Shown here piece by piece: positions 3,084 to 57,042 of a stretch of DNA of 64,000 nt (the first letter of the stretch is position 1; each line of letters opens with the position of its first letter). Origin of the DNA: a virus (lineage: Duplodnaviria > Heunggongvirae > Uroviricota > Caudoviricetes); IMG/VR virus record IMGVR_UViG_3300006145_000007, positions 40,400 through 104,399 of that record; one strand, 5' to 3'. Under the pieces are notes generated by a model. It was not told where the DNA came from. It saw nothing but the letters and a program-made list of their open reading frames with translations, and searched no databases. The position numbers and the translations under genes are program-made.

Positions 3084-3273
3084 CACCAAATTGGCCCGTT
3101 CGGCGGGACACGCAACCCCCCCCCATGAGAGGCGGCGTCTTTGGACACGCTACACCCCTCCATGTGAGGCGGTGTCTTTTTGCATCTACACACAATTCAA
3201 TCGCATAAACGGCATGTTTTATACATGCCACGGGATTGCCTACGCAGCAGTCGCTGGTTCTTTTAATTGGTGC

Positions 3274-23505: not shown

Positions 23506-24459
23506 CTAAAATAAAAGATGCTCATAATCGAGCATCCTGAAGTAGATCTTGTCTCGTTCCCACCGCTTGCAGATGATGATGTCGCCCTCACGAATTGGGT
23601 CTTGGTCGAACCTCTTCTTGAACACTGTCATCCTGCTTTCCTTTCCGCCCCCTATGGACTGTGTCAGGACGCTGTATCCAAACACCTCGTTGTCCTTCTT
23701 GCGGCGGACAGGGTAGACATTGGTGATGAAGAGTTTGTTGCGGTCACATTCCTCACCAGACACATAGCCTGCGTATCCCATGATGTCCCGGAAGTTCTTG
23801 GCCTTCATGAACACGGACAGGTCGTTGACATGTGATCCCTTGATGAAGTGTTCAATGTCATGCAGAAGCTCGTCCATCTCTGTGATCGTGTAGCTCTTGG
23901 CATCTTCACCGCTTTTGGTCTTACCAGTTGCACACTTTTTGACGATGCGCTCCAGCCACGTCCCGTCAATGTTCTCCTTGCGAATCTTCTTCGCGTCACC
24001 CTTTTTGAAGAGTTCAAACATCTCAATAATCTTGAACAGCTCACGCTGGTTACCGAACATCGAGAAGTAGTCGATCTTAATCAGTATGTCGAGCTGTCTG
24101 GAATCAATGGACGTTTTGGTGTTGATGTCACGGAGCAGGTCAATGAAGTAGTCGTAGTGGTTGGACTTTGACAGCGCATACAGCTCGTCCGCCCCGGCCA
24201 TACTCATATACTTGACGCTGCTGACACCTTTTGCGATGACATTCTTTTCTTTGTCAAAGAAGTATTCTCCCTTTGACACACCGAACTTTGGCTGGATAAT
24301 CTTGATGCCGCGCTGACGAGCCAGCATTGTTCCGTTCTGGATATCATCTTCGTTGGCGGCGTTGTTCAGGAACGATGTGATAAATTCGATTGGGTTGTAG
24401 TACCGATAGTAGGCACACAGGTACCCAAGCAAGCAGTACGCAACCGAGTGGTTATCGCG
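23506..24459 (-). CDS. dnaE: DNA polymerase III alpha subunit, exon 2 (C-terminal fingers/OB region)
   Basis: Conserved ..NHSVAYCLLGYLCAYYRYYNPIEF.. (cf. E. coli ..[25 protein letters not shown]..) continues upstream of the annotated TTG start to 24459, implying splicing rather than an independent start. Confidence 0.7.
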   Translation of the reverse strand, partial: RDNHSVAYCLLGYLCAYYRYYNPIEFITSFLNNAANEDDIQNGTMLARQRGIKIIQPKFGVSKGEYFFDKEKNVIAKGVSSVKYMSMAGADELYALSKSNHYDYFIDLLRDINTKTSIDSRQLDILIKIDYFSMFGNQRELFKIIEMFELFKKGDAKKIRKENIDGTWLERIVKKCATGKTKSGEDAKSYTITEMDELLHDIEHFIKGSHVNDLSVFMKAKNFRDIMGYAGYVSGEECDRNKLFITNVYPVRRKKDNEVFGYSVLTQSIGGGKESRMTVFKKRFDQDPIREGDIIICKRWERDKIYFRMLDYEHLLF

Positions 24460-25326
24460 TTGACCCGCTGTTTCCAGCGGCGCAGACTATATCTTCGGCC
24501 TTAGCCGTCCTTGCACTTCCAGCGGAAACTCATCCTCCGCCGTACTCCCTCGCGGGATAGTCGTTACACCTTCCGATATGGCTCCCACGCAAAACCTCCA
24601 GCCGAGTATGCGCGCAGGCTGATACATTGCAGTATCGCTCTCGCGCTTATACCGGTCTCACGCTCCGCTTCTGTGGCGGAACTATATACCTCAATGATGT
24701 CGCCGTCCTCTGTCATCTGAATGACTGGCGTACCTTTTGGTTTGCGCAGGTTGTTATATAAAGCGTGCAGGTTATTGTAGCTGTATGTAGTCCATTCCAG
24801 ATTGCTGACATCGTTGTTTGTCTTATCCCCGTCAATATGATTGACCATCGGATACCCATATGGGTTTGGAATGAACGCGGTGGCGACCAGGATATGTACC
24901 AGTGCCACATTAGATGTTCCGTCCCGGCGAAGGTTGACGACCATATAGCCGTTACCATCCTTGCCCTTGGTACGGGTCAGCTTCATCTCTCGTCCACGTA
25001 GGCGCCTTGGGTTTCCTTTCCTATCTATAACCGTGCGGTCTACACTTCTGACGTGGCCTGAGTCGCTGACTTCATAATACCCTTCATAACCTTGTATCGC
25101 TTTCCAGAGCATAAACACACCTCTCTGATCGGCTTGGCACGGTATCGCCTGCTATCCGTTGCCGGACCGTAGGTTCTCTTAGTCAGATGCTTCGTCCTTG
25201 GTGATGGCGCATATCTCCCTGTAGGGCTTCATGCGCCGGTCTTATTCATCTGATACCGTTAGCACCGCTCTAAGCGGCACACCCCTGAGTCATAGGGTTC
25301 ACAAGAAATGAGCTAATCACTAACCC
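24460..25326 (-). mobile_element. intervening sequence (~867 nt) splitting dnaE, group-I-intron-like, carrying an HNH homing endonuclease ORF
   Basis: Exon 1 homology ends ..ASAYMF| (5' exon ends in U) and resumes |RDNHSVAY..; exon-1 frame reads through 18 codons into a stop; HEG ORF inside. Confidence 0.55.
24564..25118 (-). CDS. HNH homing endonuclease (NUMOD4 + HNH_3-like)
   Basis: ..GYEGYYEVSDSGHVRS.. NUMOD4-like N-terminus; ..HILVATAFIPNPYGYPMVNHIDGDKTNNDVSNLEW.. HNH core. Confidence 0.8.
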   Translation of the reverse strand: MFMLWKAIQGYEGYYEVSDSGHVRSVDRTVIDRKGNPRRLRGREMKLTRTKGKDGNGYMVVNLRRDGTSNVALVHILVATAFIPNPYGYPMVNHIDGDKTNNDVSNLEWTTYSYNNLHALYNNLRKPKGTPVIQMTEDGDIIEVYSSATEAERETGISARAILQCISLRAYSAGGFAWEPYRKV

Positions 25327-27564
25327 AAACATGTATGCGGATGCGTCCTCAATGATCTTGAGGAACTGCTTGGCCTCCTCCTCCGCAACCTCTCGCGGAT
25401 GTTCTGACTTATCGCAGTACCCGTTGAGGATGACTGGCATCCATTCATCGAGGAGTTCCATCTTCTTCTTTGCGATGCCGCGCCGAACAGAGTCCGCCTG
25501 GCTTCCATTCAGGCCGCAGATACGCTGCAGGAATTGAATGATATCCTCCTGATAGACAAGGTATCCGAGGTTATCCTTCAGAAGCTCGTCAATCAGTTCA
25601 GACGGATTGTGGTTCTGTACTCTGGCGAGGAGCTGCTCACGATAGGACGCTCCAGACGGTCTGATACAGGCTGTCACCAGAGACATGTCGAAGATACTGT
25701 GGGTCTTGAACTTCTTCAGACTGTCGAACGCGAAGTTACCCTCCATCTGGAAGATACCGACAGGGCTTTTCAGCATGTCCTCCCACACGGCATCGTCGTT
25801 CCAGTCAATCTCATGTGTCTTCGGATATGGCCTGTTAAAGTACGAACAGCAGTCGCGGATGACCTGGACGGTCTTGAGTACCAGGAAGTCATACTTGGCA
25901 AGCCCAGCCTCGTGTGCTTCGTCCATGTCCAGCATGAGGCAGTTCTCTCCGTCCTTCTCAAATATGCCATAGTTATCTACCAATGTAACAGGACTGATAA
26001 CCATGCCGGCAGGGTGGACGGACTGCGAAACTTTTACTCCGAACATCCCCTTGACGAACCGGAATAGCTCCGGGTACTTCTTGGTGGTCGGAACCTCACA
26101 CACCTCGTCGAGGTGTTTCTTGTAGAGCTCGTCCTCAATCACGTCGTATTTGTCCAGAAGAACCTGCACGTCTGCGGCGAACTCCTTCTTGATGTCGCTG
26201 ATGCGTTCCAAAGACCACGGGTTGTCCTTTGATTCACCGTGTTTCTTCACCCACTCAAACGACAGGTGACGCCCAACGTCATCTATGACGCCACGACCTT
26301 TGATTGTACCGTATGATGCGACACGAGCTGTCTTGTCCGCCCCAAACCTGTTCGTGATGTACTCGAAGATTGCAGGGCGGTCAGCCTTCACAACGTCGAT
26401 ATCGATGTCCCCGATCTCCACACGATCCTCGTTACAGAATCGAGAGAACACGGTATGCCATGTCTCGGGGTTGAGGTCGATGATGTCTGTCACATATGCG
26501 ACCCGTGAACCTCCGACAGAACCACGGGCTGTGCCTATGGCCATACCCTGTTCTTTGCACCAGCAAATGAGTTCTGACATGGAACCCATGAACCCCATCA
26601 TGCCGATCTTGTGGAAGACCGCCATCTCTTCGTCGATTGCGGTACGGAATGCTTCTACCTGCTCAGGCGGAATCACACCGCTGGCTACCTTCTCATTGAA
26701 CATCCTATCGACACGCTCAATGAACTTTTCCTCGTCAGCTTCCTTCGACCCATATAGGATAGGATACTTGATAGACGTATCCACCTCGAAGTTCTCAACC
26801 ATATCGTCCAGGAGGTTTGTGTTCGCGATTGCTTCCAGGTACACATCTTCATCCAATGCGCCCTGCTTGGCGAACATATCCACCAGTTCGTCGTAGGTCT
26901 TGAACGTGAGATCGAATGTGTCCTCGTCCCCGTAGGTCTTGCGCTTCGCGCCGAGAAGGATCTGCCGGCACTCAGCTTTATACGGAGATGAGCTGTGGGT
27001 GTCTGTGCCTGCAATCAGCGGTGTCCCGAGTTCCTTTGACAGGGCAAGCAGCCGCCGGTTGAACGCATACTGCTCTGGATGGTCATGTGCCTGAACCTCA
27101 AAGAAGGTGTACTTCTTCGCCAGCTCCATGTACCGTGGATGCGTCACAGGCAGCTTATTGAGCGGAGAGGCGAGACACGCACTGGTAGATATGATGTTGC
27201 CTGAGATACCGAGGAACTCGTCAAAGGTGATGCGGTTTGTGTAGTAGAAGTGAGCCTTGTCACAGGACTTCCGAATCAGAAGGTTCAGCTCACGGATACC
27301 ATCCATGTTTCTGGCGAGCAAAACTGTATGGTAGTTGTCACGAATGCGTTCATTGCCCTCTGTGAACAGGCGCTCTGTCAGGTAAACCTCAACACCATAG
27401 ATGAACTTAATGCCCATCTTGTCGCAGTAGAGCTTCTTTGAAAGCCAACCACGCGGCAGGCCATGCTCTGTTGACGCGATTGCCTTCTGACCATTCTGCA
27501 CCGCAAGATCTACATACTCGCTGAACTTTGTGCAACTGTCGAGCAAACTGTAGTCTGAGTGCAT
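25327..27564 (-). CDS. dnaE: DNA polymerase III alpha subunit, exon 1 (PHP and polymerase core)
   Basis: N-terminal PHP domain ..MHSDYSLLDSCTKFSEYVDLAVQNGQKAIASTEHG..; ..GYLVYQEDIIQFL.. and ..ASAYMF.. match DnaE fingers. Confidence 0.8.
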
Positions 27565-27584: not shown

Positions 27585-28577
27585 CTATCGCAACCGCCTC
27601 CTTTCTTGGTAAAGCGTTTCGAAAACCTCCCGGCCTTTGTCGGTCGGGCTGTCCTTCGGCTCCAACATTTCATCTTTGTTGCGCACCCAGTACACGTTGG
27701 CATACTGCCTGAGCTTCATGATGTTCGCATCCTCACGTATGTTGATCTCGGCGTCCAATGCGAATGTTACCGCCACACCCAGTTTGATCAGGATCTTAAA
27801 CTGGTTGTCGTTCAGATGGCTTGTCAAAACCGCTCCGGTATTCTGGATACCCCAGCCGTCTGCCATCATCACGGACTTCGCGCCTTCAAACAGGATGATC
27901 TCACCCTTCGCACGAATCGGTGCGATGTTATCTGACAAACCGTAGATGGTATCCAGAGTACCAAGAGACTGAAAGTATGTGTACTTCCGAAGGTTCTTTT
28001 CCTTATAGTGTGGGTCGAGCGTTCTGCCGCATACGCTGATGATGTTGCCGCTGACATCACGGATTGGGTACACAAGGCGGTCGTAGAACGGATCATACCT
28101 GACCTGGAACTTTGCCATGGATTCCATACTGATACCTTCACGTTCCCACACAGCGAGCTTCTTTACATCCCACTCGTAGCGGTTCATGTAGTCGCTTTGC
28201 AGTACATAGGTTTTTGATTGTTTCTCCTTTTTATGCCTGACCTGAAACCTTTTCGCAACCGTTGTTGCAGCGAGCCGGCGCGGCGCGCTGGTCTGTTGTT
28301 CATCGTCTGTTATCCCGGCGTATCGTTTCAGGATATCGAGCCCCTTCAGGAACCCACAGTTGTGATATGCACATATGAAATCCAGAACATTCCCGCCCTT
28401 ACCGGACGAGAAGTCATAGAACTTCTGCATCTCTGTGTTAATGGAGAATGACGGTGTGCGTTCATCCTTGAGTGGACTGAGACACCAGTATTCGCCGTCC
28501 TCTTTTTCCACCGGATCGCAGAACTGAGATATGTATTCCAAGATATCAACACTCTCTACGATCTCGTAAACCTCCAC
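27585..28577 (-). CDS. dnaG: DNA primase (DnaG-like Zn-binding + TOPRIM)
   Basis: ..WCLSPLKDERTPSFSIN..FYDFSSGKGGNVLDFI.. matches the CHC2 zinc-finger region of primases. Confidence 0.65.
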   Translation of the reverse strand: MEVYEIVESVDILEYISQFCDPVEKEDGEYWCLSPLKDERTPSFSINTEMQKFYDFSSGKGGNVLDFICAYHNCGFLKGLDILKRYAGITDDEQQTSAPRRLAATTVAKRFQVRHKKEKQSKTYVLQSDYMNRYEWDVKKLAVWEREGISMESMAKFQVRYDPFYDRLVYPIRDVSGNIISVCGRTLDPHYKEKNLRKYTYFQSLGTLDTIYGLSDNIAPIRAKGEIILFEGAKSVMMADGWGIQNTGAVLTSHLNDNQFKILIKLGVAVTFALDAEINIREDANIMKLRQYANVYWVRNKDEMLEPKDSPTDKGREVFETLYQERRRLR

Positions 28578-28594: not shown

Positions 28595-29935
28595 TTAATA
28601 TGGTTCCTGCTGTACGTGCTGCTTTGCCTCTTCATACGAGATCAGGTTCCCGCAGAAGTTCATGTCTATGTATTCGTCTGGAGACATCTGCGGGCCGTTG
28701 CGGTTCAGCACGACACGAAGTTTCTTGTTGCCGCACTCAGGCCCGTCTGCCTCGATCTCTTCCGGCAGCTTGTCCTGGATGATTGCGATAGTCGAAGCAT
28801 TGCGCCCGATCTTTGCGCTGTCTGCGACTCTGCCTGTCGATGTGGCCTGCGCCGCTCCAATCCCGGCGATGTTCATATCACCACAGATCTGGTTCTTGAC
28901 CATATCGACAAACCTTCCGAGTTCCTGGTAGCTGTCGAAGGCGTCGCCCTCGCCCTTCCCCTTGAAGTAGTCCACAATCAGAACGTCAATACCCTGTGTG
29001 TGATTGACCTTCTTCACCGTCGTATAGATGCTTTGTGCGTCAAACATCGGCATATAGAGATGGGTGAAGCTCTTATTCTTCATCCACTTCCTGCACTCGT
29101 CAAGCCGCCTTGCTTCCTCTGGTGAGTAGTTTCCGCTGCGGACACGGTTAAACTCGATCTTCGCCAGATGTGCCATAAGCCTGCAGGTGAACAGGCGAGA
29201 GTTCAGCTCACTGTCTATATACATGACACGCTTACCTCTGCTCAGCAAATCAACAGCGCAGTTCAGGAGCATCATGCTCTTACCTTGCTTTGCCTCTGCT
29301 GCGAACACCACCAGCTCACCGGGTTCAATGGTCACATACTGATTGAGAGTCGGGAACTTGAAGGGGATACCGGATGTACCGTCCTTCTGCCTTTGACAGA
29401 TCTGATACCATAGGTCATCTACCACATCCTTATACTGAGGAACCTCTTTGTTTGTGGAGAACTGCATCATCACATCATCGAGGGTGGAGTAGATCTTTTG
29501 CTCGATTTCTTTTTCTGTCATACTTTGGCAGATATTCTGACACTCAGACAGCTTCTGGTAAGTAGCGCGGCGGAACGCCATATTGAGTACAGACTCTGCG
29601 GCGAGCCTGTAATCCTCCGGTGTGTTTCTGGCGATCGATGTCGCGGTATTGATGAACTCCTCAACATTCCTCTCGTTCAGGACACTGTCAACCTTCGCTC
29701 TCAGCTTTGGCTGCGACCTTAAGATATTCAGGATGTTGTATGCGTCAACCGTGTGGATGTTGTGCTCTTCGAGTTGCTTAAGTGCGTAGAAGAGCCAGGA
29801 GTTCGTTTGGTTTGTAAAATGCCTTGGGTTGAGCTGTTCCACCAAATACACGTAGTCCGGATGGAAGACCAGAGAGGCAACTACACCGGCCTCACTGTTC
29901 AAGTCGCAAATATCATTGACATCCAATGTAATCAC
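28595..29935 (-). CDS. dnaB: replicative DNA helicase (DnaB family)
   Basis: DnaB N-terminal domain, Walker A ..AAEAKQGKSMMLLN.., RecA-like core. Confidence 0.85.
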   Translation of the reverse strand: MITLDVNDICDLNSEAGVVASLVFHPDYVYLVEQLNPRHFTNQTNSWLFYALKQLEEHNIHTVDAYNILNILRSQPKLRAKVDSVLNERNVEEFINTATSIARNTPEDYRLAAESVLNMAFRRATYQKLSECQNICQSMTEKEIEQKIYSTLDDVMMQFSTNKEVPQYKDVVDDLWYQICQRQKDGTSGIPFKFPTLNQYVTIEPGELVVFAAEAKQGKSMMLLNCAVDLLSRGKRVMYIDSELNSRLFTCRLMAHLAKIEFNRVRSGNYSPEEARRLDECRKWMKNKSFTHLYMPMFDAQSIYTTVKKVNHTQGIDVLIVDYFKGKGEGDAFDSYQELGRFVDMVKNQICGDMNIAGIGAAQATSTGRVADSAKIGRNASTIAIIQDKLPEEIEADGPECGNKKLRVVLNRNGPQMSPDEYIDMNFCGNLISYEEAKQHVQQEPY

Positions 29936-30705
29936 CTTCCGTTCGTCTGGAAGAAGCAGCAGTCGCCGCTCTTATCACAGATATATCTGCACTTCCAGTA
30001 TTCTATCTTTGGAGACCAGTCTTCGTTCTCGGTGATTGTGTCAATGGTTTTGAGCGCCCATTCCTTTGTCTTTTCAAATTCTTCCTGACGGAAGGGCTCG
30101 GAGATCAACTGCCCCGTTCGGAAGCAGTTGAACTCCAGCCTGTCAGGGTATGTATGATAAAGCTGTTCCATCGGAACGCTATACAGGTAAAGCTGTCTCA
30201 GATATGAGTCCAGCTCGGCATCTGATACTGTTGGCTTCTTTCTCCCGGATCTTGGCTTCAGCGCCCTGGACTTGTTGTCAAGGATCACAAGTTTGCCGTC
30301 GTCCATCGCCACACAGTCGATGATACCTGTGAATGGTTTGTCACCAACGAGGAAGTCAACCTTCTGTTCCACCCCTACCGGCGACAAGTACGGGAAATCA
30401 ATCTCGCTTAGATAGTCGTAACCCTGATCAAAATAGCTTTTGAATATTCTGTTGCTCGGCGCCTTGCCCCTTACGTTCTTACGAAACCCGGACACATATG
30501 CGCCTGTCAGCTCTTCTTTCTCCAAAAAACCTCGCAGATACAGTTCAATCAGCTTGTGCATAAAGCTCCCGTAGTCCGAGAAGAACATGGGTTTCTTGTC
30601 CGCCTTCTTGATGTAAGAAAGCAAAAACCCATATGGGCACATCTCAAACTGACCGATCCGAGAATAAGACCATGTGAAATCCGAAATGATATTCGAGTAG
30701 TTCAC
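29932..30705 (-). CDS. PD-(D/E)XK nuclease, Cas4-like/RecB-family exonuclease with C-terminal Cys cluster
   Basis: ..IDCVAMDDGKLVILDNKS.. D..D/E.K motif; C-terminal ..CRYICDKSGDCCFFQ.. Fe-S-type cysteines. Confidence 0.6.
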   Translation of the reverse strand: MNYSNIISDFTWSYSRIGQFEMCPYGFLLSYIKKADKKPMFFSDYGSFMHKLIELYLRGFLEKEELTGAYVSGFRKNVRGKAPSNRIFKSYFDQGYDYLSEIDFPYLSPVGVEQKVDFLVGDKPFTGIIDCVAMDDGKLVILDNKSRALKPRSGRKKPTVSDAELDSYLRQLYLYSVPMEQLYHTYPDRLEFNCFRTGQLISEPFRQEEFEKTKEWALKTIDTITENEDWSPKIEYWKCRYICDKSGDCCFFQTNGR

Positions 30706-31147: not shown

Positions 31148-31861
31148 TTATTTCACGCCGAGTTCCTGCTTCAGCGCCTCGAACAGCTCGGACGCCTGAG
31201 CGGAAGTCTCTACGGCGTAGTAGTTCGCGCTCGGCTTGCCGTTCTCGCGAACATACTTCTTGGTCAACGTGATGACCTTCGGTTTGTCGTCAGGGTGCTG
31301 CGACAGATGGGCGGTCACCAGCCCATGGATCTGCTCCACGATCTTCCCGGCGATTGCGCGGTCTTCCTCGCCTTCAGCAAACCTCTGCTTGCTTCGCCAG
31401 TCGTCCGGGTCTTCGCCGTCCAGCGTTGCGATCTGGAAGAACTGCGTCAGGAACTGACGCAGGCCGTAGGTCAGACCGCTGCCGACTGCTTGTGCAGGAT
31501 CGGCTTGGCTCCCTGCGATGAACCATGGCACATCGATCCTCTCGGTCGGGTCATCATCATTCACCCAGGTGTAGACGATGCCGGCCTTCGCCGTGAACTC
31601 ATTGTTCTTCTCCTCGTACTGCTGGCCGTCTTTGGTGAACTTGGTCTTGCAGTATGTATACGGTTCGACGGACTCAGAGCCAGGAACGATGCTGGGGATC
31701 AGGGACACATTGTACTTGTTCATGCCGGCCGTGACCCTTGCCAGAATCTCGTCGATGGAGGTGTACTTGTAGTTGAACCCTTTCCGGTTCTTCTGGATCA
31801 CCTCTGTCATCTTGCGGATCTTGGACAGCTTCTGTTGGAGGTTCAAAACTTCTTCTGCCAT
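31148..31861 (-). CDS. ERF-family single-strand annealing recombinase
   Basis: N-terminal ..NLQQKLSKIRKMTEVIQKNRKGFNYKYTSIDEILARV.. matches the Erf superfamily pattern. Confidence 0.7.
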   Translation of the reverse strand: MAEEVLNLQQKLSKIRKMTEVIQKNRKGFNYKYTSIDEILARVTAGMNKYNVSLIPSIVPGSESVEPYTYCKTKFTKDGQQYEEKNNEFTAKAGIVYTWVNDDDPTERIDVPWFIAGSQADPAQAVGSGLTYGLRQFLTQFFQIATLDGEDPDDWRSKQRFAEGEEDRAIAGKIVEQIHGLVTAHLSQHPDDKPKVITLTKKYVRENGKPSANYYAVETSAQASELFEALKQELGVK

Positions 31862-33159: not shown

Positions 33160-34089
33160 TTAGGTGAACACTGCTTTCCAGCAAGCGTAGTCATCAAACA
33201 GATCCCGCCTCAATATCCCTGCCACCTTGCTCCTTGTATAGTTCGTGTGGTAGGTGCTTCCCATCTTACTGATATGGTCAGCTATCAGTGTATCAAAGTT
33301 GACTGGGTCTCCCATACGTTCCGCCTCGTATACTCTGTAGAACACACCAGACAGGCGGAGCTTGCCGTATGTCAGCTCAACATCATGCGCCTTGAACGCC
33401 TTTTGGATGATACTTTTCACCGTGTTCAGCTTGACCTGTTCTGATCTGATACCACGCATCAGATACTCTCCGGCGCACCTGTTTCTGGTCTGCTTGTAAC
33501 GCGGGTGTTCATAGACGAACTCTGTCGCGTCACATGCCATGCGGAACGCTGGTATCGCTTCACGGTACAGCTCATAGGACTTGCCGCCATGCTCAATCAA
33601 CATAGAGGAGAAGTCCACTTCGCTGACCTTGATGTCAAGTGCGTCCTCTTCTGTGATGCCGGCGAACGCCATCCATAGGTAGCACCTGTAGATACAGTCA
33701 ACCGTGTTGCTCTCAACAGGCTGGAACACCTTGTCCAATGTCGCCTGGAGATGCCTCGGAGATGAAACCATACGGCGCCTTATCTTTTCGTCCATCTGAG
33801 ACTGCACATCGTAGATAGCGTCACATGTCTCATATCCGTTGTCCTTACACCACACGACGTATGAACGGAGGAAGGCGACATACGAATCCATAGACCTTGT
33901 TCTTGCACCGAAGTTCCCGTTTATAATCTCCTGCACAGTCTCCAGAGGAAGCTCGCAGAAGTCGGTGCCGGCTGCCTCCTCATACCTTCCTGTTGTCCGG
34001 AACACAGAACGTCCGAAGTCTGACGAACTCCGCGTGCTTTCGATGAACTGTACCTTGCGCTCTTCGTTATACATACCCGTCCTCCTCAT
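33160..34089 (-). CDS. hypothetical protein, translationally coupled to the upstream MazF-like gene
   Basis: 309-aa ORF whose ATG overlaps the MazF-like stop (ATGA at 34086-34089). Confidence 0.5.
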   Translation of the reverse strand: MRRTGMYNEERKVQFIESTRSSSDFGRSVFRTTGRYEEAAGTDFCELPLETVQEIINGNFGARTRSMDSYVAFLRSYVVWCKDNGYETCDAIYDVQSQMDEKIRRRMVSSPRHLQATLDKVFQPVESNTVDCIYRCYLWMAFAGITEEDALDIKVSEVDFSSMLIEHGGKSYELYREAIPAFRMACDATEFVYEHPRYKQTRNRCAGEYLMRGIRSEQVKLNTVKSIIQKAFKAHDVELTYGKLRLSGVFYRVYEAERMGDPVNFDTLIADHISKMGSTYHTNYTRSKVAGILRRDLFDDYACWKAVFT

Positions 34090-34517
34090 GCCACACTGTT
34101 CAGTCTGACAGACTTGCGCCAGACATCAATCAGCTCGGCTTCGTCCAGGAAGGAGATCGCTGCCGTGGCGATCAGACTTGCTATGGCGATCTGCTTCATG
34201 TACTTGTCGGACAGTTTAGTGATGAAGCTGCCGATACGTGTCTTGGACATCTTCTCTGGATTCTCGCATAGCACCATGCTGTCTTTTGGAAGCCCAGACT
34301 CTGATGATGCAACCAGGACATGGGTAGGTTGGCCTGTCTTCTTCATGACCTTAGTCATAGGGAGCGCAATCACATTAGGGCTGTGTGCGTTGCCAACATT
34401 GTTCTGGAAGACCACACCAGGTCTCCACCCGCTCTGCTCGTTCCCGACCCCTTCAAATTTCATGTAGTATACTTCCCCGATCAGTGGGGACACACATGCT
34501 TGACGAGTCTCGCTCAT
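34086..34517 (-). CDS. MazF/PemK-family endoribonuclease-like protein with ~50-aa C-terminal extension
   Basis: ..GEVYYMKFEGVGNEQSGWRPGVVFQNNVGNAHSPNVIALPMTKV.. matches MazF/Kid core (G.RP.VV...N); no MazE-like ORF upstream. Confidence 0.6.
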   Translation of the reverse strand: MSETRQACVSPLIGEVYYMKFEGVGNEQSGWRPGVVFQNNVGNAHSPNVIALPMTKVMKKTGQPTHVLVASSESGLPKDSMVLCENPEKMSKTRIGSFITKLSDKYMKQIAIASLIATAAISFLDEAELIDVWRKSVRLNSVA

Positions 34518-35054: not shown

Positions 35055-35825
35055 ATGGACTTCAAAGAAAACCTGAAAGCCATCAGGATGGATAGAGGCA
35101 TGACGCAAAGGTCTCTGGGTGTAAGCCTTGGCGTGACTCCAGTTACGATTGGCAACTGGGAGAGAGGAACAAGACAGCCATCCTTTGACCTGCTTGTCCG
35201 CCTTGCAGAAACTCTTAAAACGAGTACCGACGAACTGCTTGGCAGGTACTCCGGCAAGATACTGAGTCTTGAGGCAGAAGCTATAGCGCGCAAGTATGCA
35301 TCGCTTGACACACACGGCCGCAGCTTAGTCGATACTGTATGCACAATGGAGTATGAGCGAGTACAACATAGTGCGAAAGTTATCAGACTGCCGTCCCGTG
35401 ATGAATCTCAGCATGTGTCGCGGCACAGGTTCCTTCCCAAATACTTGTCCCCTCCGGCGGCAGGCTTTGGTGTACCGCTCGAAGGGGATGACTTTGAGAT
35501 GATTCTTGTAGATGACAACACACCAGATGATGCCGATTACGCGGTCTGCATCTCTGGTGACAGCATGGAGCCGTATATCTCAGATGGCGATATGGTGTTT
35601 GTGATGGAGACCAACGAGCTGGATGATGGAGATGTCGGCATCTTCTGTGTGAACGGAGAGATGTACTGCAAGCAGTATCATGTCGATGACAACGGAACCC
35701 TGCACCTCCTGTCTGCAAATCCGGACAGAGAGCGTGCAAGTTTCCATATCTCACCAGACAGCGGGTACAGTGTGCGGTGCTGCGGGAAAGTCCTTCTGGA
35801 CTTCTGTGTCCCTCTTCCTGACTAA
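35055..35825 (+). CDS. cI: CI-like phage repressor (XRE HTH + S24 LexA-type peptidase domain)
   Basis: HTH ..MTQRSLGVSLGVTPVTIGNWERG..; S24 motif ..AVCISGDSMEP.. and Lys in ..YCKQY..; only + strand gene within the leftward block. Confidence 0.85.
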   Translation: MDFKENLKAIRMDRGMTQRSLGVSLGVTPVTIGNWERGTRQPSFDLLVRLAETLKTSTDELLGRYSGKILSLEAEAIARKYASLDTHGRSLVDTVCTMEYERVQHSAKVIRLPSRDESQHVSRHRFLPKYLSPPAAGFGVPLEGDDFEMILVDDNTPDDADYAVCISGDSMEPYISDGDMVFVMETNELDDGDVGIFCVNGEMYCKQYHVDDNGTLHLLSANPDRERASFHISPDSGYSVRCCGKVLLDFCVPLPD

Positions 35826-38119: not shown

Positions 38120-39265
38120 TTATCCTCCTCGTAGCTGATTTACTGAATCGATGATAAGCCGAATGGCCTCCTCGATCTCCTCGCCTGTAGTGTACTGTGA
38201 CACAGAAACCCGGATGGAGCTTCGGGCCTCATCTTCTGTCAGACCGATGGCAGACAGAACATGGCTTGGAACTGCATAGTGCGCCGAACAGGCAGACCCA
38301 GCAGATACCTCAACGCCTTGACTGTCCAGAAGCATAAGCAGCGTTTCTCCGTCCACATCATCAAAGCGCAGGTTCAATGTCTTCGAGTTATAGTGCGGCG
38401 TCCCGTTGACATAGACCCCAGACAACTGTGACAGAACGCCGTTCCTGATCGCCCCAACCTTTTTGCCGTACGCATAGGTATCATGGAGCCACTCTGCATG
38501 AGAAAGCTCTGCAGCCTTCCCGAGGCCGACGATGTATGGCACGTTGTGTGTGCCTCCCCGCAGCTCGTACTCCTGACTGCCGCCGTGAATCACAGGGCGA
38601 AGGAACTCCTTGTGTCTGGCGTACAAAAAACCGACCCCTTTCGGCGCGTGGACTTTGTGCCCAGATGCCGACAGGAAGTCGATACACGACAGGTCTACAT
38701 CAATGTTTGTACCGCAGTATGCCTGAACGCAATCCGTATGGAATAGAGCGCCGGCGCTCCTGCAAATTTCTCCGATACGTTCGATGGGGTATCGGTTCCC
38801 GATCTCATTGTTGACCGCCATGATTGACACGAGGCCAGTGTTCTCACGCATAGCTTCTGCCACACGCTCTGGTGGGATGTCACCGTCGCGGTCAACGTCC
38901 AGCCAAGTCACCTCGAATCCTGAATCAAACAGGGATTTTATTGCATTCAGAACGGAGTGATGTTCGACTTTCGTGGTGATGATGTGTGTGCGGCCCACAG
39001 ACTTCAGATAGTCTGCCAAGCCAACAATCGCCAAGGTGTTTGCCTCCGAGCCGCCAGACGTGAAGATGATGTTGCTCGGGTCGGCGCCGATGGGAACCGC
39101 GACCTGCTCCCGTGCTTTCTCTATTGCCTTCGCCGCTTTTCTCCCAGCGGAGTGGATGCTCTCCGGGTTCCCGTACACATCGGAGAAGTACGGTGTCATA
39201 GCCTCCAGAACCTCTGGGGATACCTTTGTGGTCGCCGCGTTGTCAAGATAAATCATTGGAATCAC
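38120..39265 (-). CDS. cysteine desulfurase (NifS/IscS-like class V aminotransferase)
   Basis: ..IYLDNAATTKVSPEVLEAM..; ..FTSGGSEANTLAI..; ..SASGHKVHAPKGVGFLY.. PLP-lysine region; ..SAGSACSA.. active-site Cys loop. Confidence 0.8.
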   Translation of the reverse strand: MIPMIYLDNAATTKVSPEVLEAMTPYFSDVYGNPESIHSAGRKAAKAIEKAREQVAVPIGADPSNIIFTSGGSEANTLAIVGLADYLKSVGRTHIITTKVEHHSVLNAIKSLFDSGFEVTWLDVDRDGDIPPERVAEAMRENTGLVSIMAVNNEIGNRYPIERIGEICRSAGALFHTDCVQAYCGTNIDVDLSCIDFLSASGHKVHAPKGVGFLYARHKEFLRPVIHGGSQEYELRGGTHNVPYIVGLGKAAELSHAEWLHDTYAYGKKVGAIRNGVLSQLSGVYVNGTPHYNSKTLNLRFDDVDGETLLMLLDSQGVEVSAGSACSAHYAVPSHVLSAIGLTEDEARSSIRVSVSQYTTGEEIEEAIRLIIDSVNQLRGG

Positions 39266-39271
39266 CTACTT

Positions 39272-40171
39272 TCACTTGCCGCTTTGTTTCATTTCTTCCC
39301 GGAACCTTAGATATGCTCTGGTGTACTCGTAGCTATCCTTGAAGATTGCGTTCGCAGCTTTCAATAGCTTAGGCTCATACTGCTCGATAGACGCCAGTTC
39401 CTCTTCAAACCGTTTGCCAAACGGACACCCAAAACATCCTGTGCGCACAAGGCCATATTCTGTGTAGCAACGGCTATGTGTTACATCGTAATGCCTGCAA
39501 TACTCTTCCTTGTCCGTATCTCGCAACCAGAAGATTGGGCGGAAGTAATCCATGCCGCCGGCTCCATCCGAGAAACAGCTATGTAATGCCGCAGACCTGA
39601 CGCCTCCTTCTGATTGGCGTATGCCGATACACGACAGGTCATATCCTTTTCCTTTTGCAAATTGTGCCGCAACATTTTTCTTTGCATAGGTGCAGCACTT
39701 GCTTGATATTTTGAATGTGGGAGGGTTCTGTACCATGAACTCCTTAAGATATGGGTTCCGCTTGATGGCGTATTGCGTTGTATTTCCGTAGGTAACATCA
39801 CACCACCATTCCAAAGCTGTTTTGCACTTTGGGTACTTGGCATACAGCTCGTCAAATGGTTTGTCTTCCCACTGGAAGTTGTGTCGCTGAAGGCGATAAA
39901 TCATCTCAGCGGCAAACTTTGACATAAATGGAACACCGTACTCCCGGTTTGATACTGGAATCGGTTTGACGGGATGCGCCTTCACAATTTTGATGCCATA
40001 CTTATCTTCGAGGTAACCAAGGTGTTCCAGTGTCGCTTGATATTCCAGACCCGTATTGAAAAACACAAAGTCTGTCTTGTTCTTGGCGCCACAGCGCACA
40101 AGCATATCAAGCATCACATCACTGTCGCCCCCCCCCGCTGATGGAGCACATAATCTTCTTATGCTCTTCAA
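39272..40171 (-). CDS. PP-loop ATP pyrophosphatase, PAPS-reductase/TtcA-like, with Fe-S type Cys pairs
   Basis: PP-loop ..PSAGGGDSDVML.. (SGGxDS); ..FFNTGLEYQATLEH.. (PAPS_reduct DTG..ET); Cys pairs ..SSKCCTY.. and ..GCFGCPFG..; in-frame G9 tract encodes the GGG of the P-loop. Confidence 0.7.
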   Translation of the reverse strand: MKSIRRLCAPSAGGGDSDVMLDMLVRCGAKNKTDFVFFNTGLEYQATLEHLGYLEDKYGIKIVKAHPVKPIPVSNREYGVPFMSKFAAEMIYRLQRHNFQWEDKPFDELYAKYPKCKTALEWWCDVTYGNTTQYAIKRNPYLKEFMVQNPPTFKISSKCCTYAKKNVAAQFAKGKGYDLSCIGIRQSEGGVRSAALHSCFSDGAGGMDYFRPIFWLRDTDKEEYCRHYDVTHSRCYTEYGLVRTGCFGCPFGKRFEEELASIEQYEPKLLKAANAIFKDSYEYTRAYLRFREEMKQSGK

Positions 40172-40279
40172 CGACTTCGACGCATTTTGCCAATGCGTCT
40201 ACAATAACAAAGTTGTTTGGCGCACCGGCGAGTAGTTTGTCAACGTCAACTATAACTCTCACCTCTATTTTCGTTAACG

Positions 40280-43008: not shown

Positions 43009-43638
43009 TTAGTGTTCGTTGAACACAACCTGTTCCCCACACTGGAGAGTCCAGCATCCATCATCCGTGCAGGCACACTCGGAACAGTTCCCGCCGCACA
43101 GTTTCGCATCGTCACGGGCGGTGGTCGTCCTGTCCGTGTAACGCACATGAGCCTCCGGCAGGCAAAACGGGTTCTGCATTTCGAGACCAACCCATGCGCT
43201 CAGGATAATATGTAAATTCTTTGGGAAAGACCCGCCAGAACTGAGGTAGTCGTTTACGATCTCATACTTTTTGGTAAAGCAGAGGATCTGACAGTGCTGG
43301 TTCCGGCGAGCCACGTTGACCATACGCACCAGATAGGTGCTGTCAGGGATGTCGCCGGAGACATGGAATCTAAAAAATCGAGACAGCATAACCGCTGCCT
43401 CGACCTCTCTCCAATATGTATCTGGATCATTCCGAAGAATGTCCAGATTGCGCCGGTATGCTGCGGCAACACTTGGTCGCAGCCGTTCCAGCTTTCGTGC
43501 GTAACACTTCTTATGACAATCGCACTCTCGGCATGTCACGACAGACGGCAGAGAGACGCTTGCGATGTTACCCATCTTCTTGTTTGACTGACTGATGCTG
43601 AGTTCGCCCATCAATATACACCTCCAACAAAACGCCAC
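43009..43638 (-). CDS. hypothetical Cys-cluster protein
   Basis: 209 aa; N-terminal ..CRECDCHKKC.. and C-terminal ..CGGNCSECACTDDGCWTLQC.. clusters. Confidence 0.4.
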   Translation of the reverse strand: MAFCWRCILMGELSISQSNKKMGNIASVSLPSVVTCRECDCHKKCYARKLERLRPSVAAAYRRNLDILRNDPDTYWREVEAAVMLSRFFRFHVSGDIPDSTYLVRMVNVARRNQHCQILCFTKKYEIVNDYLSSGGSFPKNLHIILSAWVGLEMQNPFCLPEAHVRYTDRTTTARDDAKLCGGNCSECACTDDGCWTLQCGEQVVFNEH

Positions 43639-43661: not shown

Positions 43662-44348
43662 TTAGAACTTCAACTTGATATGGTGTACTTTCTTCATGTA
43701 CGCAGCGATGAACTGTTTGCTTTGCTCAACCTGTGACTCATATGGCAGCTCTGTGTCATAGCCGACATACATAGCAAGGATCATAGCGTTGATCATGTCC
43801 TGTGTGATCTTCGCTCTGTCCATATTGGCCATCACCGAAGAAACGCCAACCATAAGGGAAATCCATGCCCTTGCCATGGTTTCGGTTTCCTCAATCCTGA
43901 ACGCACTGAGCCAATCCTTCAATGTGATTTCATTGCCTCTCTTGACACCTGGGCAGGATACATTCTGCGTGAAGTAGCTTGCCTCCATCGTGTCTGCGTC
44001 CGTGAATCTGCCGAGAGGGAAGATTGCACAGACGACCGGCTTGTCGTCCTGAACCATACACTTACCATTTCGCAGCAGGCTGCAACTCCCGTCCATACGT
44101 TCTCTCAGGACAAACACAGGAGTATTTGATGTTGATCCGAGATACCCGGTCAGATATTTGCTGACTACCTCTCCAGGTCTGATGCCAAGAGACTTCGCGA
44201 TCCTGAAGATATCTGGCCCGGTGAGCAGAATTGGTTCTGCTCTGTTGCGACAACAATTCCCGCACATCTGGCAGGTAAATGTGAATGTGTCGTCAGGCTT
44301 CAGGACATTCGCCTTCATTCTTTCTACGTCTTCTGCTGTGTACGCCAT
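43662..44348 (-). CDS. YkgJ-family putative Fe-S/zinc-binding protein (CxxCxxCC)
   Basis: ..FTCQMCGNCCRN.. signature. Confidence 0.5.
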   Translation of the reverse strand: MAYTAEDVERMKANVLKPDDTFTFTCQMCGNCCRNRAEPILLTGPDIFRIAKSLGIRPGEVVSKYLTGYLGSTSNTPVFVLRERMDGSCSLLRNGKCMVQDDKPVVCAIFPLGRFTDADTMEASYFTQNVSCPGVKRGNEITLKDWLSAFRIEETETMARAWISLMVGVSSVMANMDRAKITQDMINAMILAMYVGYDTELPYESQVEQSKQFIAAYMKKVHHIKLKF

Positions 44349-53412: not shown

Positions 53413-53837
53413 TCCTGCATGGTATACAGTTCGTCACAGTACCACACATAGAACCCGCGCTTGTCGTTATACGACTTTTCCAGTTGGAACATCAGGCTGT
53501 CTACGCTTTCTGAGCCATGCTTAAAGGCGTCGATGAACTGGTCGATGCTGATATCAGACAGCCTCTTAACCGCGTCCATGAAGCGGGTGAAGTAACTTTC
53601 AAAGAAGTCGATGACATCGACCTTGAAAGTGATCTTATCGCCGTCCAGCTTACATACCTCTCCGAAGTTTGTTCCCATCAGCCACTCGATGTCGTCATCG
53701 CGATACTGCTCGTTGATGTCGTCCACATAGTCTGCGATAGACGATGTGAACCAATCAGGAATCGTCTCGCTGCAGATACGGTCTTCCTTGCTGACCGGTT
53801 TATCTTCGATCTGAAAAATCCTACTATGCATACTCAC
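53346..53837 (-). CDS. hypothetical protein
   Basis: 163-aa ORF. Confidence 0.4.
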   Translation of the reverse strand: MSMHSRIFQIEDKPVSKEDRICSETIPDWFTSSIADYVDDINEQYRDDDIEWLMGTNFGEVCKLDGDKITFKVDVIDFFESYFTRFMDAVKRLSDISIDQFIDAFKHGSESVDSLMFQLEKSYNDKRGFYVWYCDELYTMQEWMRQVKPSGVYYLGGIVDYHF

Positions 53838-54757
53838 CGGTACTCCCTTCTTAAAAATTGGAACATCTCGGCGATATCACCTGTGATGTCATACCTTATG
53901 GGGCAGCATGAGTTGTATGCAAACTTCCCGTCAACCGCATCAATATACATGGATGCGGAATCGAACGAGCCGTTTCTTCCATCATCTCCCATGTAGAACT
54001 CGTCCCACTCTTCCTTTGTCATGAAGCGTCCTGGGGAGAGCTGACCAAGCCCGATGTTATCAAAGCTGATCGCTTTGAACTCACCGTTCTTGATGGCATC
54101 TCCCAGCCGGTCGTGGAGCCAGATCTTTTTATCCTCGACCTCTCGCCAGTGGGCGTTGTGGTTGTACGCGCCACGGCGGAAATCCTTGTACCCAAGGATC
54201 AGGATTTTCAGTCCGTGGTTTGCCAGGGCATTGAACCCGTTCTCCGAGATAATTCCGTTGATGATGTGGATGACAGCGTTGGGAAACTTACTGACCTCTC
54301 TGATAAAGTCAGGCGTGTCGTCCTCCAGCCCGAGGAAAGAGACGCCAAGGCCATAAATTAACCCCTGCTCCGTCAGATCGTGGAGCAGGGGAATGGCCTT
54401 CATGAAGTGAACCTTGTTCACCGTGATGTTTGGAATCAGGTCGTGGTCTTTACAGAGCCGGAGAAACGGAACCAAGTCCGGGTGAACCAGCGGATTTCCT
54501 CCGCCGATAGCCAGCTCTGTGTATGGGTGTATGGAATCCAGGAATGGAAGATGGAGGATGTCCCCGTGTTTGCCGTCCGGTTTGGAATCCTCGTGGCACA
54601 TCGGGCAACCCATGTCACACTGGTTCGTTATCTTGATGTCGAATGATTCCGGGAATGCCGGCTCAAAGAAATTCAGGTCGTTCTCACGGATCTTCGTGCC
54701 GTCACTATAAATCCGCACATAATAATTCCCGTTGACATAATCGCCTAAGATGCTCAC
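53834..54757 (-). CDS. radical SAM enzyme (unassigned subfamily)
   Basis: Cx3Cx2C motif ..ITNQCDMGCPMCHE.. and Gly-rich ..LAIGGGNPLVH.. Confidence 0.6.
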   Translation of the reverse strand: MSILGDYVNGNYYVRIYSDGTKIRENDLNFFEPAFPESFDIKITNQCDMGCPMCHEDSKPDGKHGDILHLPFLDSIHPYTELAIGGGNPLVHPDLVPFLRLCKDHDLIPNITVNKVHFMKAIPLLHDLTEQGLIYGLGVSFLGLEDDTPDFIREVSKFPNAVIHIINGIISENGFNALANHGLKILILGYKDFRRGAYNHNAHWREVEDKKIWLHDRLGDAIKNGEFKAISFDNIGLGQLSPGRFMTKEEWDEFYMGDDGRNGSFDSASMYIDAVDGKFAYNSCCPIRYDITGDIAEMFQFLRREYR

Positions 54758-55081: not shown

Positions 55082-55648
55082 TCACGTTCCTTTGAACACC
55101 ACAATCATACTGGGGAATGGTGCCTTTGTAGCGACCCCTGACCTGTCAAGGATCGGCTGGCCATCTACTTCAAAGGCGAGCCTGCCGCGCAGGAACTGAA
55201 TCGTGACGCCGGGTTTGTTGTAGATGTAGTCATGAAATGAGGCCCGGTCAGTTCTCGCCGGGATCAACAACACAACGGTTGTGCCTGGCTTCTTTGCCTC
55301 CTCAAAACATTTCTTTGTCCAGATCCCGGTCTCCTTGTTCCCATACGGCGGATTACAGAAGACCGTCTCCCCCCCCCAGTCTTGAGCGAGACCGTCATCA
55401 TCCGCCGTAAAGTACCTGTCCACCTTGTGGTTGGTGTGAGATGCTGCGGCATCCAAGGTGAAATGATAATGACGATCTAATTCATCGAACAGACGCTGCG
55501 GGGTTTCCCAGTCGTTTTTGTCGCTGCTGAACATTACAGCCTGTGTTGCCCTGTCTATGTGAATCACCTCATTTTGAAAACTTTTATCCGTAATATGCGG
55601 GCAGGGATTTGCACCCTGCATAGAGCCGATTATTGCCTGCACGAGCAT
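55082..55648 (-). CDS. dam: phage DNA N6-adenine methyltransferase (Dam-like)
   Basis: ..WETPQRLFDELDRHYHFTLDAAAS.. and ..FCNPPYG.. (motif IV); in-frame G9 tract encodes WGGE. Confidence 0.8.
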   Translation of the reverse strand: MLVQAIIGSMQGANPCPHITDKSFQNEVIHIDRATQAVMFSSDKNDWETPQRLFDELDRHYHFTLDAAASHTNHKVDRYFTADDDGLAQDWGGETVFCNPPYGNKETGIWTKKCFEEAKKPGTTVVLLIPARTDRASFHDYIYNKPGVTIQFLRGRLAFEVDGQPILDRSGVATKAPFPSMIVVFKGT

Positions 55649-56097: not shown

Positions 56098-57042
56098 TTA
56101 GAATGGCAAGTCGTATTCCACGTTGTTTCCTGCGTTACTTAAGACCTTACTTGCACCATCGCAAATCTTTGAGAACCCGGCGATAGTTGTGATAGCAGCT
56201 CGCTCGAACTGTTTGTTGATGAGCTTCTCATACTCAACCGTAACGCTACCCACATGAATCATTTCCAGAGCAAAGCGTTTGTCCAGCCCGATCACAGTTT
56301 GCTCTGGTGCTGCGCTGGTTCGGATCAATGTCGCACCAAAAGGTGTAGTCATTGCGTTCGGGTGTTGAATATTGAACCCAAGAATCTGCGGTTGGAACTC
56401 CTGAGTTCTTAACAATTCAAGCACTACATCATTCGATGCAAGCACTACATTCATCTCATACGGGTCAAACCTCATCCAGAAGTTTAGCATTGCGTCATAG
56501 TTGAATAGAGCCCCGTTCATAGGAACAACTTCTGCTGGGTTGCTATCGTTCCCATCAATAAGTACACCGATGGCATCTTGCAAGCGAGACCGAGCAATAT
56601 ATGCGCCAATCTGTCGGAGTGTAACAGAAAACAAATCCAACTTTTGTGCGCGGATTGCATCGTAACTCGATACCATCATCCTACCCCGCTTGGATATTTT
56701 CACATGGTTGGTGTTCGCCTGTTCTACTGTGCTGACTATTGTTGTAGAGGCCGTAATCATTGGGAGGATGCCAGACTCCTCTATGCCATGACGTACTGCT
56801 CTTGCAACATATTCCGGGAACAACACTGCAGAGTCTGTTGTCGCAAAGAACTTTTCAACGGGGTCTGAGCCGGCCCCGCGTACTTTAATATCGAAGCGTT
56901 TGAGCTGACGCTGAAAGGCGTCAAGACCTTCTAACGGTGTACCAATATATTTGTCGCTTGGGTCTATACTCTCTAACACCTGACTGAAAGAGCGCCCATG
57001 CTCTTGGTACATGCCCTTTTCCAGTTTGAAGTTATTGTTCAT
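56098..57042 (-). CDS. hypothetical 314-aa protein (possibly HK97-fold/encapsulin-like; unconfirmed)
   Basis: Well-formed ORF; no motif identified with certainty. Confidence 0.35.
   Translation of the reverse strand: MNNNFKLEKGMYQEHGRSFSQVLESIDPSDKYIGTPLEGLDAFQRQLKRFDIKVRGAGSDPVEKFFATTDSAVLFPEYVARAVRHGIEESGILPMITASTTIVSTVEQANTNHVKISKRGRMMVSSYDAIRAQKLDLFSVTLRQIGAYIARSRLQDAIGVLIDGNDSNPAEVVPMNGALFNYDAMLNFWMRFDPYEMNVVLASNDVVLELLRTQEFQPQILGFNIQHPNAMTTPFGATLIRTSAAPEQTVIGLDKRFALEMIHVGSVTVEYEKLINKQFERAAITTIAGFSKICDGASKVLSNAGNNVEYDLPF

Follow-up and report, generated by a model that had tools for sequence, protein, structure and literature searches.

The stretch analyzed here, termed the window in the following, comprises 64,000 nucleotides (nt) of the IMG/VR virus record IMGVR_UViG_3300006145_000007 (Caudoviricetes; positions 40,400 to 104,399 of that record) and encodes a cysteine desulfurase directly next to an iron-sulfur (Fe-S) enzyme of the PP-loop type. 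A run of guanines within the PP-loop gene differs in length between near-identical phage genomes and places the window copy out of frame. We propose that both genes form a minimal, switchable module for the insertion of sulfur into phage DNA, and to this DNA-thiolation reading as a whole we assign a probability of roughly 0.4. The argument is built on the following features:

38120..39265, minus strand: cysteine desulfurase, class-V pyridoxal phosphate (PLP) enzyme, NifS/IscS/DndA/SspA-like, 381 amino acids (aa) from GTG 39265.
39272..40262, minus strand: full gene of the PP-loop/[4Fe-4S] protein of the 3'-phosphoadenosine 5'-phosphosulfate (PAPS) reductase superfamily, phrog_424; 329 aa with a run of eight guanines (G8), +1-frameshifted in the window copy.
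40128..40136, minus strand: homopolymer of nine guanines (G9) on the coding strand (C9 on the plus strand) in the codons of the PP-loop S-G-G-G-D-S; G8 is in frame, G9 out of frame.
40119..40262, minus strand: upstream-frame segment of the broken gene, 47 codons (MRVIV...CSISGGGRQ in a three-frame translation), ending with TGA at 40119-40121.
39272..40171, minus strand: downstream-frame segment, a 299-aa open reading frame (ORF) with a TTG start, of which the first ~11 residues are out-of-frame sequence.
55082..55648, minus strand: Dam-like N6-adenine DNA methyltransferase, probable start ATG 55534 (Pfam PF05869, 4e-25).

The first-pass annotation had named the 299-aa ORF as the PP-loop neighbor of the desulfurase. 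It is indeed coding sequence and lies next to the desulfurase gene, but it turned out to be a fragment of the frameshifted 329-aa gene. Residues 11-285 of the ORF align with positions 167-373 of the 460 positions of the phrog_424 profile (5.4e-27), which places it in that family, and Pfam PAPS_reduct (PF01507) is matched by residues 10-66 only (41.5 bits). Upstream of the G9 run the other frame reads VRVIVDVDKLLAGAPNNFVIVDALAKCVEVVEEHKKIMCSISGGGRQ, followed by a stop codon, with the true start at GTG 40262 ('MRVIVDVDKLL...KKIMCSISGGG'), and this frame is colinear with the N-termini of the homologs P0001, P0021 and that of Clostridium phage CS266P3 ('...KKIMVSISGGADSDIILD'). Deletion of one G from the run yields the 329-aa ORF from GTG 40262, which is colinear with all homologs and in which the three glycines of S-G-G-G-D-S are encoded by the homopolymer itself. 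On this evidence the 299-aa ORF is genuine coding sequence but a fragment of the 329-aa gene, which should be off in the window. Re-initiation at GTG/ATG 40106-40117 in the G9 state would yield a protein devoid of the PP-loop. A gene in the G9 state could still be expressed through programmed +1 ribosomal frameshifting or transcriptional slippage at the run; such a rescue is not needed, because G8 alleles exist. The canonical SGGxDS loop described initially is present in the repaired protein, whereas the 299-aa ORF as it stands reads S-A-G-G-G-D-S, because its first residues come from the wrong frame. The cysteine pairs CC (189/190) and CxxC (276/279) noted at the same stage are present and invariant across the family; a DTG..ET motif had to be dropped, as the actual residues are NTGLEYQAT.

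The block common to the relatives begins at 40270, slightly upstream of GTG 40262. Between 40270 and 41017 three to four small ORFs upstream of the PP-loop gene are swapped for unrelated sequence in the relatives L083 and L091-L093, with both flanks kept, and the mosaic junction defined in this way coincides exactly with the ribosome-binding site of the PP-loop gene.

Run lengths were compared across consensus assemblies. Within the window's own lineage (93-98% aa identity) G8 occurs in L091, L092, L093, L094 and L095, and G9 in the window, in L083 (MGBC157594, a metagenome-assembled genome of Oscillospiraceae) and in L206 (SRR23329057) together with three similar contigs. The sole indel between the window and L094 (99.2% identity, 8.9 kilobases, kb) lies at 40128, as does the sole indel between the window and L092; the comparison with L091 over 9 kb contains one additional 3-nt indel. 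Throughout these near-identical comparisons, about 9-16 kb, the run is the only indel that breaks a reading frame, and a T8 run at 34587 is invariant. As expected of a contingency locus, the reading frame is toggled by a run whose length varies among genomes that are otherwise nearly the same. At 62-70% identity, G8 is found in L066/L173, L174 and L199-L205 and G9 in L171, L172, L175 and L176; three of these loci represent a single lineage from three samples, with G9 in L172 and L176 and G8 in L174. In the SGGA subgroup, for which G8 is likewise the in-frame length, L207 has G7 (the -1 state). Moreover, out-of-frame residues immediately precede GG(G/A)DSD in ~15 of the 120 best protein clusters. 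Only such forms were counted, because the short proteins of L208 and L209, which lack a run, result from miscalled start codons; the assumption that all N-terminally short database proteins are frameshift products was rejected on the same grounds. An apparent fusion of P0002 to PTH2 was also discarded as a frameshift artefact.

The codons GGG-GGG-GGC are retained in all five lineages sampled at the DNA level within the 62-98% identity clade, and the share of GGG among the glycine codons of the window genes is only 23%. In shuffled sequences 0.34 G9 runs are expected by chance per window; four separate G/C runs of at least nine bases are present. A separate run was found in a lineage of 30% GC content at codons 8-10 of the same gene (MEKLKLTGGGNKN...; ~5943-5952 in L010), with lengths of G8, G9, G9 and G10 among the four loci L010, L038, L128 and L133. 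The G8 copy is an intact ORF of 356 aa; the G9, G9 and G10 copies stop after 10 or 23 codons, and no other in-frame start was found in these three copies of the PP-loop gene. The variation in run length is thus seen directly in the sequence comparison, and we infer from it that the switch would be reversible. Homopolymer switches appear to have arisen at least twice in the PP-loop gene family, and the run in the lineage of the window is very probably a genuine hypervariable switch.

Homopolymer phase variation is known from the phasevarion methyltransferases of Neisseria, Haemophilus and Helicobacter and from poly-G tracts in receptor-binding genes of Campylobacter phages. As in these systems, a coding poly-G run shifts by +/-1 and thereby turns a gene on or off, and here this also applies to a DNA methylase of the same phage. 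Unlike in the known cases, the run lies in the catalytic motif of a sulfur-transfer enzyme and in temperate phages of gut Clostridia. Our literature search returned no report of homopolymer switches in such phage sulfur-transfer genes, though absence from the search does not prove that there is none.

The methylase mentioned above carries a coding G9 run at 55369-55377 in the W-G-G-E codons before NPPY, which is in frame (ON) in the window. Among 22 relatives from IMG/VR (L177-L198) the run comprises G8 in four, G9 in ten, G10 in six and G11 in two cases, so that 12 of the 22 are out of frame, and it represents the sole indel in the near-identical pairs L180/L183 (7.9 kb) and L184/L194 (6.7 kb). 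Taken by itself, the Dam-like enzyme seems to be a phase-variable phage methylase. L175 and L187 belong to one IMG/VR contig, on which, as in the window, the PP-loop gene is off and the methylase on. Together, both switches suggest bet-hedging over the marks on phage DNA. Two genes from the methylase, an ORF at 53834-54757 resembles radical-SAM proteins (CDMGCPMC; Pfam Radical_SAM 6e-4, under the cut-off), and homologs of it with 46-48% identity occur in six PP-loop loci.

The assignment of 38120-39265 to an IscS/NifS-type desulfurase is corroborated by Pfam, NCBIfam and PADLOC models and by its catalytic residues. The protein matches Aminotran_5 (PF00266, 5e-83), scores 412, 358 and 356 bits with the NCBIfam models for NifS, DndA and IscS, and reaches 444 bits with SspA, the best PADLOC model, and 442 bits with DndA; its PHROG family is phrog_12787. 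The IscS-type residues H102/H103, D178, Q181, K204 (SGHK) and C326 (GSAC) are retained. With its class-V aminotransferase fold, the PLP lysine in SGHK and the catalytic cysteine in the GSAC loop it conforms to the group-I (NifS/IscS-type) desulfurases and is, judged by these signatures, an intact member of that group. No subfamily can be assigned, because all scores lie under the NCBIfam equivalog cut-offs for NifS, DndA and IscS. The true start is probably ATG 39256, which gives 378 aa, as called in the relative L206.

The repaired PP-loop protein has 2974 homologs, mostly of 322-336 aa and with PF01507 as the only domain, and a full HMMER scan returned 253 clusters at 50% identity (E<=1e-30). 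Invariant throughout the family are S42, G43, G44, D46 and D48 of the PP-loop and the cysteines C189-C190, C276 and C279; further invariant residues are the cysteines 57, 154, 229 and 265, K194 and K195, and G213, R215, E218, G220 and R222. AlphaFold gives a high-confidence model (predicted local distance difference test 94, predicted template-modelling score 0.89). The SGGxDS loop lies where the first strand of a Rossmann-like fold ends, as in the superfamily of PP-loop ATP pyrophosphatases. The best fold matches by name are reductases of adenosine 5'-phosphosulfate (APS) and PAPS, followed by TtuA (12.3), LarE (11.6), NcsA (10.2) and QueC (9.1), and structures of DndC, SspD or TdpC are not among the matches from PDB. 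In an alignment with the APS reductase of M. tuberculosis (7lhr), the motifs KCC and GCxxC fall on its cluster ligands ECC and GCAPC, so that CC...CxxC represents putative [4Fe-4S] ligands as in the Fe-S subclass of APS reductases. Compared to the enzymes of this subclass (4bwv, 2goy, 7lhr), the phage protein differs in its canonical SGGxDS loop, in scores far under the cut-offs and in ~100 extra residues, which form inserted helices and a C-terminal helical tail. Since no cysteine follows C279 in the repaired protein, the C-terminal catalytic cysteine of sulfonucleotide reductases has no counterpart.

Classification with Hidden Markov Models (HMMs) was carried out for the window protein and 64 members of the family. 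APS/PAPS-reductase models are matched by 64/64 members (best 3e-13), with scores an order of magnitude under the cut-offs and over only ~70-100 N-terminal residues; the family level of CysH is not reached (TIGR02055, 25 bits versus 235; NF002537, 29 bits versus 154). TtcA is matched weakly by 34/64 members, and all scores stay below the cut-offs of the TtcA and TtuA models. From PADLOC, BrxP is matched by 64/64 (best 2e-12) and SspD by 64/64 members (best 7e-10); the repaired protein itself scores 6e-8 with BrxP and 1.4e-5 with SspD, in both cases with residues ~33-111 only, and does not qualify as a full-length SspD or BrxP. DndC, TtcA and CysH, between which the first-pass annotation had asked the models to decide, thus all failed to apply, and the protein belongs to phrog_424. 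We conclude that it is a predicted adenylating Fe-S enzyme of the PAPS-reductase superfamily which constitutes a phage family of its own outside DndC, TtcA and CysH.

The two genes are separated by 6 nt in the window, which bears out the adjacency described before, and the same pair exists in all seven close relatives (L083, L091-L095, L206), in which desulfurase copies of 96-98% identity lie directly downstream of the PP-loop gene. In L086, a desulfurase with only 31% identity is located immediately upstream of a PP-loop gene with 53% identity, in the opposite order and with an overlap of 14 nt, and in L172 a desulfurase (49% identical) is encoded 5.8 kb from the PP-loop gene. The pairing is accordingly lineage-specific and arose at least twice independently. 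That such a pair constitutes a core of thiolation, as was claimed initially, agrees with the literature, where the two proteins catalyze the first steps of all known systems of DNA phosphorothioation (PMC12914056, PMC12839542).

According to the proposed mechanism, the desulfurase, given its family membership and intact catalytic residues, would mobilize the sulfur of cysteine as a persulfide. The neighboring 329-aa enzyme would receive this sulfur for its [4Fe-4S] cluster, for onward transfer, or for both. Motifs and fold of this enzyme suggest that it most likely adenylates an oxygen of a nucleic acid and swaps in sulfur; insertion of sulfur is proposed because a PP-loop is combined with an APS-reductase-type CC...CxxC and the reductase cysteine is missing. 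From context and precedent, the substrate would most likely be the backbone of the phage's own DNA, modified by a stand-alone, TdpC-like writer without ATPases of the DndD, SspC or BrxC type, and the purpose would be to evade phosphorothioate-based or other restriction by the host. Gain and loss of a G would toggle the PP-loop gene (G8 ON, G9 OFF), with the window copy OFF and the Dam methylase ON.

DNA as the target of the sulfur-transfer pair is favored by its context. The pair is placed among replication and recombination genes, and no tRNA gene was detected in the window. DNA methyltransferases are the commonest neighbors in 34 lineages of the family (Dam-like in seven, N4/N6 in five, two C5 families in three each), and a sigma factor and a single-stranded DNA-binding protein are also among the commonest. 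One homolog, P0128 (locus L244), is a 568-aa ORF in which an EcoRI-methylase-like domain is followed without a gap by the PP-loop family sequence, starting at its SGG motif; it is a single ORF at the DNA level and the sole convincing fusion in the family. Backbone phosphorothioation of phage DNA would be the most likely chemistry and target. The more specific version, namely stand-alone, single-enzyme DNA thiolation in temperate phages of gut Clostridia, as phosphorothioation or as a hitherto undescribed base thiolation, with a desulfurase of their own in some lineages and stochastic poly-G switching in parallel to a phase-variable Dam, we regard as tentative and somewhat doubtful.

In each of the four established systems of DNA phosphorothioation (dnd, ssp, brx type 4 and tdp), a protein with a PAPS-reductase domain is combined with a cysteine desulfurase; a P-loop ATPase is required as well in dnd, ssp and brx, but tdpC is reported to be sufficient on its own (PMC12914056). 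Linkage of the desulfurase is sporadic in type-4 bacteriophage exclusion (BREX) systems, because housekeeping IscS, NifS or SufS substitute for it (PMC12839542). The phage pair resembles DndA-DndC in that a NifS-like desulfurase with a high DndA score is encoded beside a PP-loop Fe-S protein of the PAPS-reductase superfamily; it differs from Dnd by its phage origin, its homopolymer switch, and the absence of a DndC match and of DndB, DndD and DndE among the best 25 of 88 PADLOC families. SspA-SspD and BrxP are the nearest defense-system models, with SspA as the best model for the desulfurase and a similarly sporadic desulfurase linkage in BREX-4. In contrast to SspD and BrxP, only ~80 residues around the PP-loop align, and a DUF4007/SspB module, an SspC/BrxC ATPase, PglZ and BrxL are missing. 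The only precedent for an ATPase-free writer is TdpC (An et al., Nat Chem Biol 2025, as cited in PMC12914056), a single PAPS-reductase-like protein which, according to that citation, suffices for the modification via an adenylated DNA intermediate. The phage protein is likened to TdpC by this description alone; Tdp is a chromosomal defense system of thermophiles, unlike the phage gene.

Homologs of PAPS reductases in phages have repeatedly been left uncharacterized (PMC11437467) or filed under host metabolism (PMC11318856). In a Vibrio phage, a region with a PAPS-domain::Dam fusion confers escape from the host's Dnd system, as observed with recombinant phages (bioRxiv 10.1101/2021.05.05.442762; so cited in PMC13551039). 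The protein concerned, p0018 of phage P5a_red (Piel et al., 10.1101/2021.05.05.442762), is similar to the system described here in that a phage PAPS-reductase-domain protein is tied to a Dam-type methylase. Compared by description, it differs as a fusion protein with a PAPS domain of ~175 aa, without linked desulfurase and without a reported homopolymer switch. LP.1 is the only Vibrio phage record among the 11 matches in the phage collection (E<=1e-5).

Several findings weigh against DNA thiolation by this pair. A desulfurase was found within 6 kb in none of 82 loci of the 50-56% identity clade (IMG/VR and phage collection), and conversely a PP-loop gene lies within 7 kb of none of 34 phage desulfurase loci; a role of the desulfurase as family-wide partner was rejected on the basis of both counts. 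DndC is matched neither by the window protein nor by any of the 64 members, be it with TIGR03183 or the PADLOC model (E<=0.01), and the likeness to BrxP and SspD is weak and limited to the PP-loop region, which is common to all PP-loop enzymes. A DNA-recognition or ATPase partner, as required in Dnd, Ssp and BREX-4, is absent from the PADLOC scan of the window and from the neighbors in 34 lineages. Chemistry and substrate of the family are predictions from sequence and modelled fold, and the differences in run length come from consensus assemblies. Moreover, the frameshifted forms are a minority in the large protein collection, roughly 10% by member counts, and the fusion P0128 derives from a single contig of 4.3 kb, with a methylase motif that reads TAPPS.

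Some of these findings also bear on other explanations. Since most family members and most phage desulfurases are unlinked, the desulfurase may be a general helper for Fe-S proteins. The corresponding alternative, in which it serves general maturation of the many Fe-S and cysteine-rich proteins of the phage and the PP-loop enzyme carries out another, adenylation-dependent chemistry on DNA or nucleotides or interferes with Dnd or Ssp of the host, we consider unlikely but worth weighing. It agrees with the ~40 of 44 PP-loop lineages without a nearby desulfurase and with the 34 phage desulfurase loci lacking a PP-loop gene, most of which have an HNH/NUMOD4 homing endonuclease as their neighbor. 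In addition, genes for NrdD, a radical-SAM-like protein, a CxxCxxCC protein and GP88 lie in the window, and the Fe-S cluster of DndC is reportedly assembled by DndA (as cited in PMC12914056). However, desulfurases unrelated to each other came to lie tightly beside the PP-loop gene on two occasions, in opposite order and probably with translational coupling; the two roles of the desulfurase do not exclude each other, and a PP-loop beside a cluster site is the layout of non-redox sulfur insertion in the solved structures of TtuA, NcsA and LarE. That the PP-loop enzyme, like TtcA, TtuA or NcsA, thiolates tRNA or another RNA with sulfur from the desulfurase and thereby tunes translation during infection is quite improbable in our view.

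Less probable still is the explanation of the frameshift as a sequencing or assembly error or as the sign of a dead gene, with the differences in run length as noise. Homopolymers are error-prone, the assemblies are consensus sequences, some of low coverage, and some short proteins in the databases (L208/L209) proved to be miscalls without a run. Against this, at least four lineages show the +1 state repeatedly in independently assembled sequences, and a fifth (L207) shows the -1 state. Near-identical pairs differ over 6.7-13 kb by no frame-breaking indel other than the run, and the T8 run does not vary; a second run elsewhere in the gene varies from G8 to G10 in the 30%-GC lineage, lengths of the Dam run range from G8 to G11 among 22 contigs, and the codon choice of the G8 run is conserved against codon usage. 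A very remote prospect, finally, is that the protein is an assimilatory APS/PAPS reductase, encoded by an auxiliary metabolic gene that would serve sulfate assimilation, in line with PHROG-based annotation. By name, APS/PAPS reductases lead both the HMM and the fold matches, and phrog_424 is labelled 'PAPS reductase / host metabolism' (PMC11318856). Yet the HMM scores amount to 25-45 bits versus cut-offs of 154-235 and cover the N-terminal part only, the reductases' catalytic cysteine has no counterpart, the SGGxDS loop is canonical, and no other gene of sulfate assimilation was detected among the scanned ORFs of the window. Nucleic-acid modification in the arms race between phage and host is preferred over sulfate assimilation because of these enzyme features, the twice-recruited desulfurase and the switches which arose twice.

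The window belongs to a temperate phage of gut Oscillospiraceae/Clostridia, with the sulfur-transfer pair in the early/replication region. Its temperate nature, assumed from the beginning, is supported by integrases, an S24 repressor (domains taken from the relative L206), a capsid protein and replication genes. The following genes were assigned:

6642-7664 and 10795-11985: integrases.
7677-9110: endolysin.
15101-16948: NrdD.
20200-21855: C5 methylase.
25270-27564: Pol III alpha.
27585-28577: primase.
28595-29935: DnaB helicase.
29932-30705: PD-(D/E)XK nuclease.
31148-31861: ERF.
33160-34089: MrpR-like recombinase.
34086-34517: PemK.
35055-35825: S24 repressor.
43009-43638: GP88, cysteine-rich, adjoining the CxxCxxCC protein.
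43662-44348: CxxCxxCC protein, putatively Fe- or Zn-binding.
56098-57042: capsid protein.

Components of Dnd, Ssp and Brx were not found among the best 25 of 88 PADLOC families (E<=1e-3) with 80 window proteins, and the lack of nearby DndB, DndD and DndE, as stated in the first-pass annotation, therefore holds within this scope. No protein partner, neither an ATPase nor a DNA-binding protein, is conserved across the 34 lineages, and a DNA search with the 4.5-kb region against the phage collection gave no match.

Further observations concern other parts of the window. GP88 and the CxxCxxCC protein are found again in L172, L176 and L187, which are related mosaic phages. A protein encoded at 24564-25118, initially suspected to be an Fe-S scaffold, was rejected as such and is an HNH/NUMOD4 homing endonuclease; its gene lies between Pol III alpha and an HHH_6 ORF (23506-24432), an arrangement which suggests a split polymerase gene, and homologs of it occur directly beside phage cysteine desulfurases in at least 25 IMG/VR loci (including L210-L231). 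At 671-4771 a diversity-generating retroelement is located, with a reverse transcriptase at 3656-4771 (plus strand), a template repeat at 3274-3416 and a variable repeat at 2779-2921, the latter at the 3' end of a 754-aa ORF without Pfam match (671-2935). The repeats are 88% identical, and 16 of the 17 differences fall on adenines of the template. Between them a cluster of homopolymers extends from 3057 to 3179, comprising G16 (3057-3072), G8 (3076-3083) and C9 (3116-3124) together with a tandem pair of 37 nt (3106-3142 and 3143-3179). Finally, an NAD synthase (NadE, of the PP-loop type) is encoded beside a nicotinamide/nicotinate phosphoribosyltransferase at 60575-63207, which looks like a phage pair for NAD salvage.

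Genes for 'PAPS reductases' are common in phages and are routinely labelled as host metabolism (PMC11437467, PMC11318856). If the proposed DNA thiolation is true, a phage population would always hold virions with differing combinations of DNA marks, which would insure it against restriction of unmodified DNA in some hosts and of modified DNA in others. Natural ON and OFF alleles exist for both the PP-loop gene and the Dam methylase in the same phages. Should the product be phosphorothioate DNA, the enzyme would be, as far as literature searches show, the first phage-encoded writer of this mark and a minimal one as well, and phages of this kind would be a possible source of the phosphorothioates detected in gut microbiomes.

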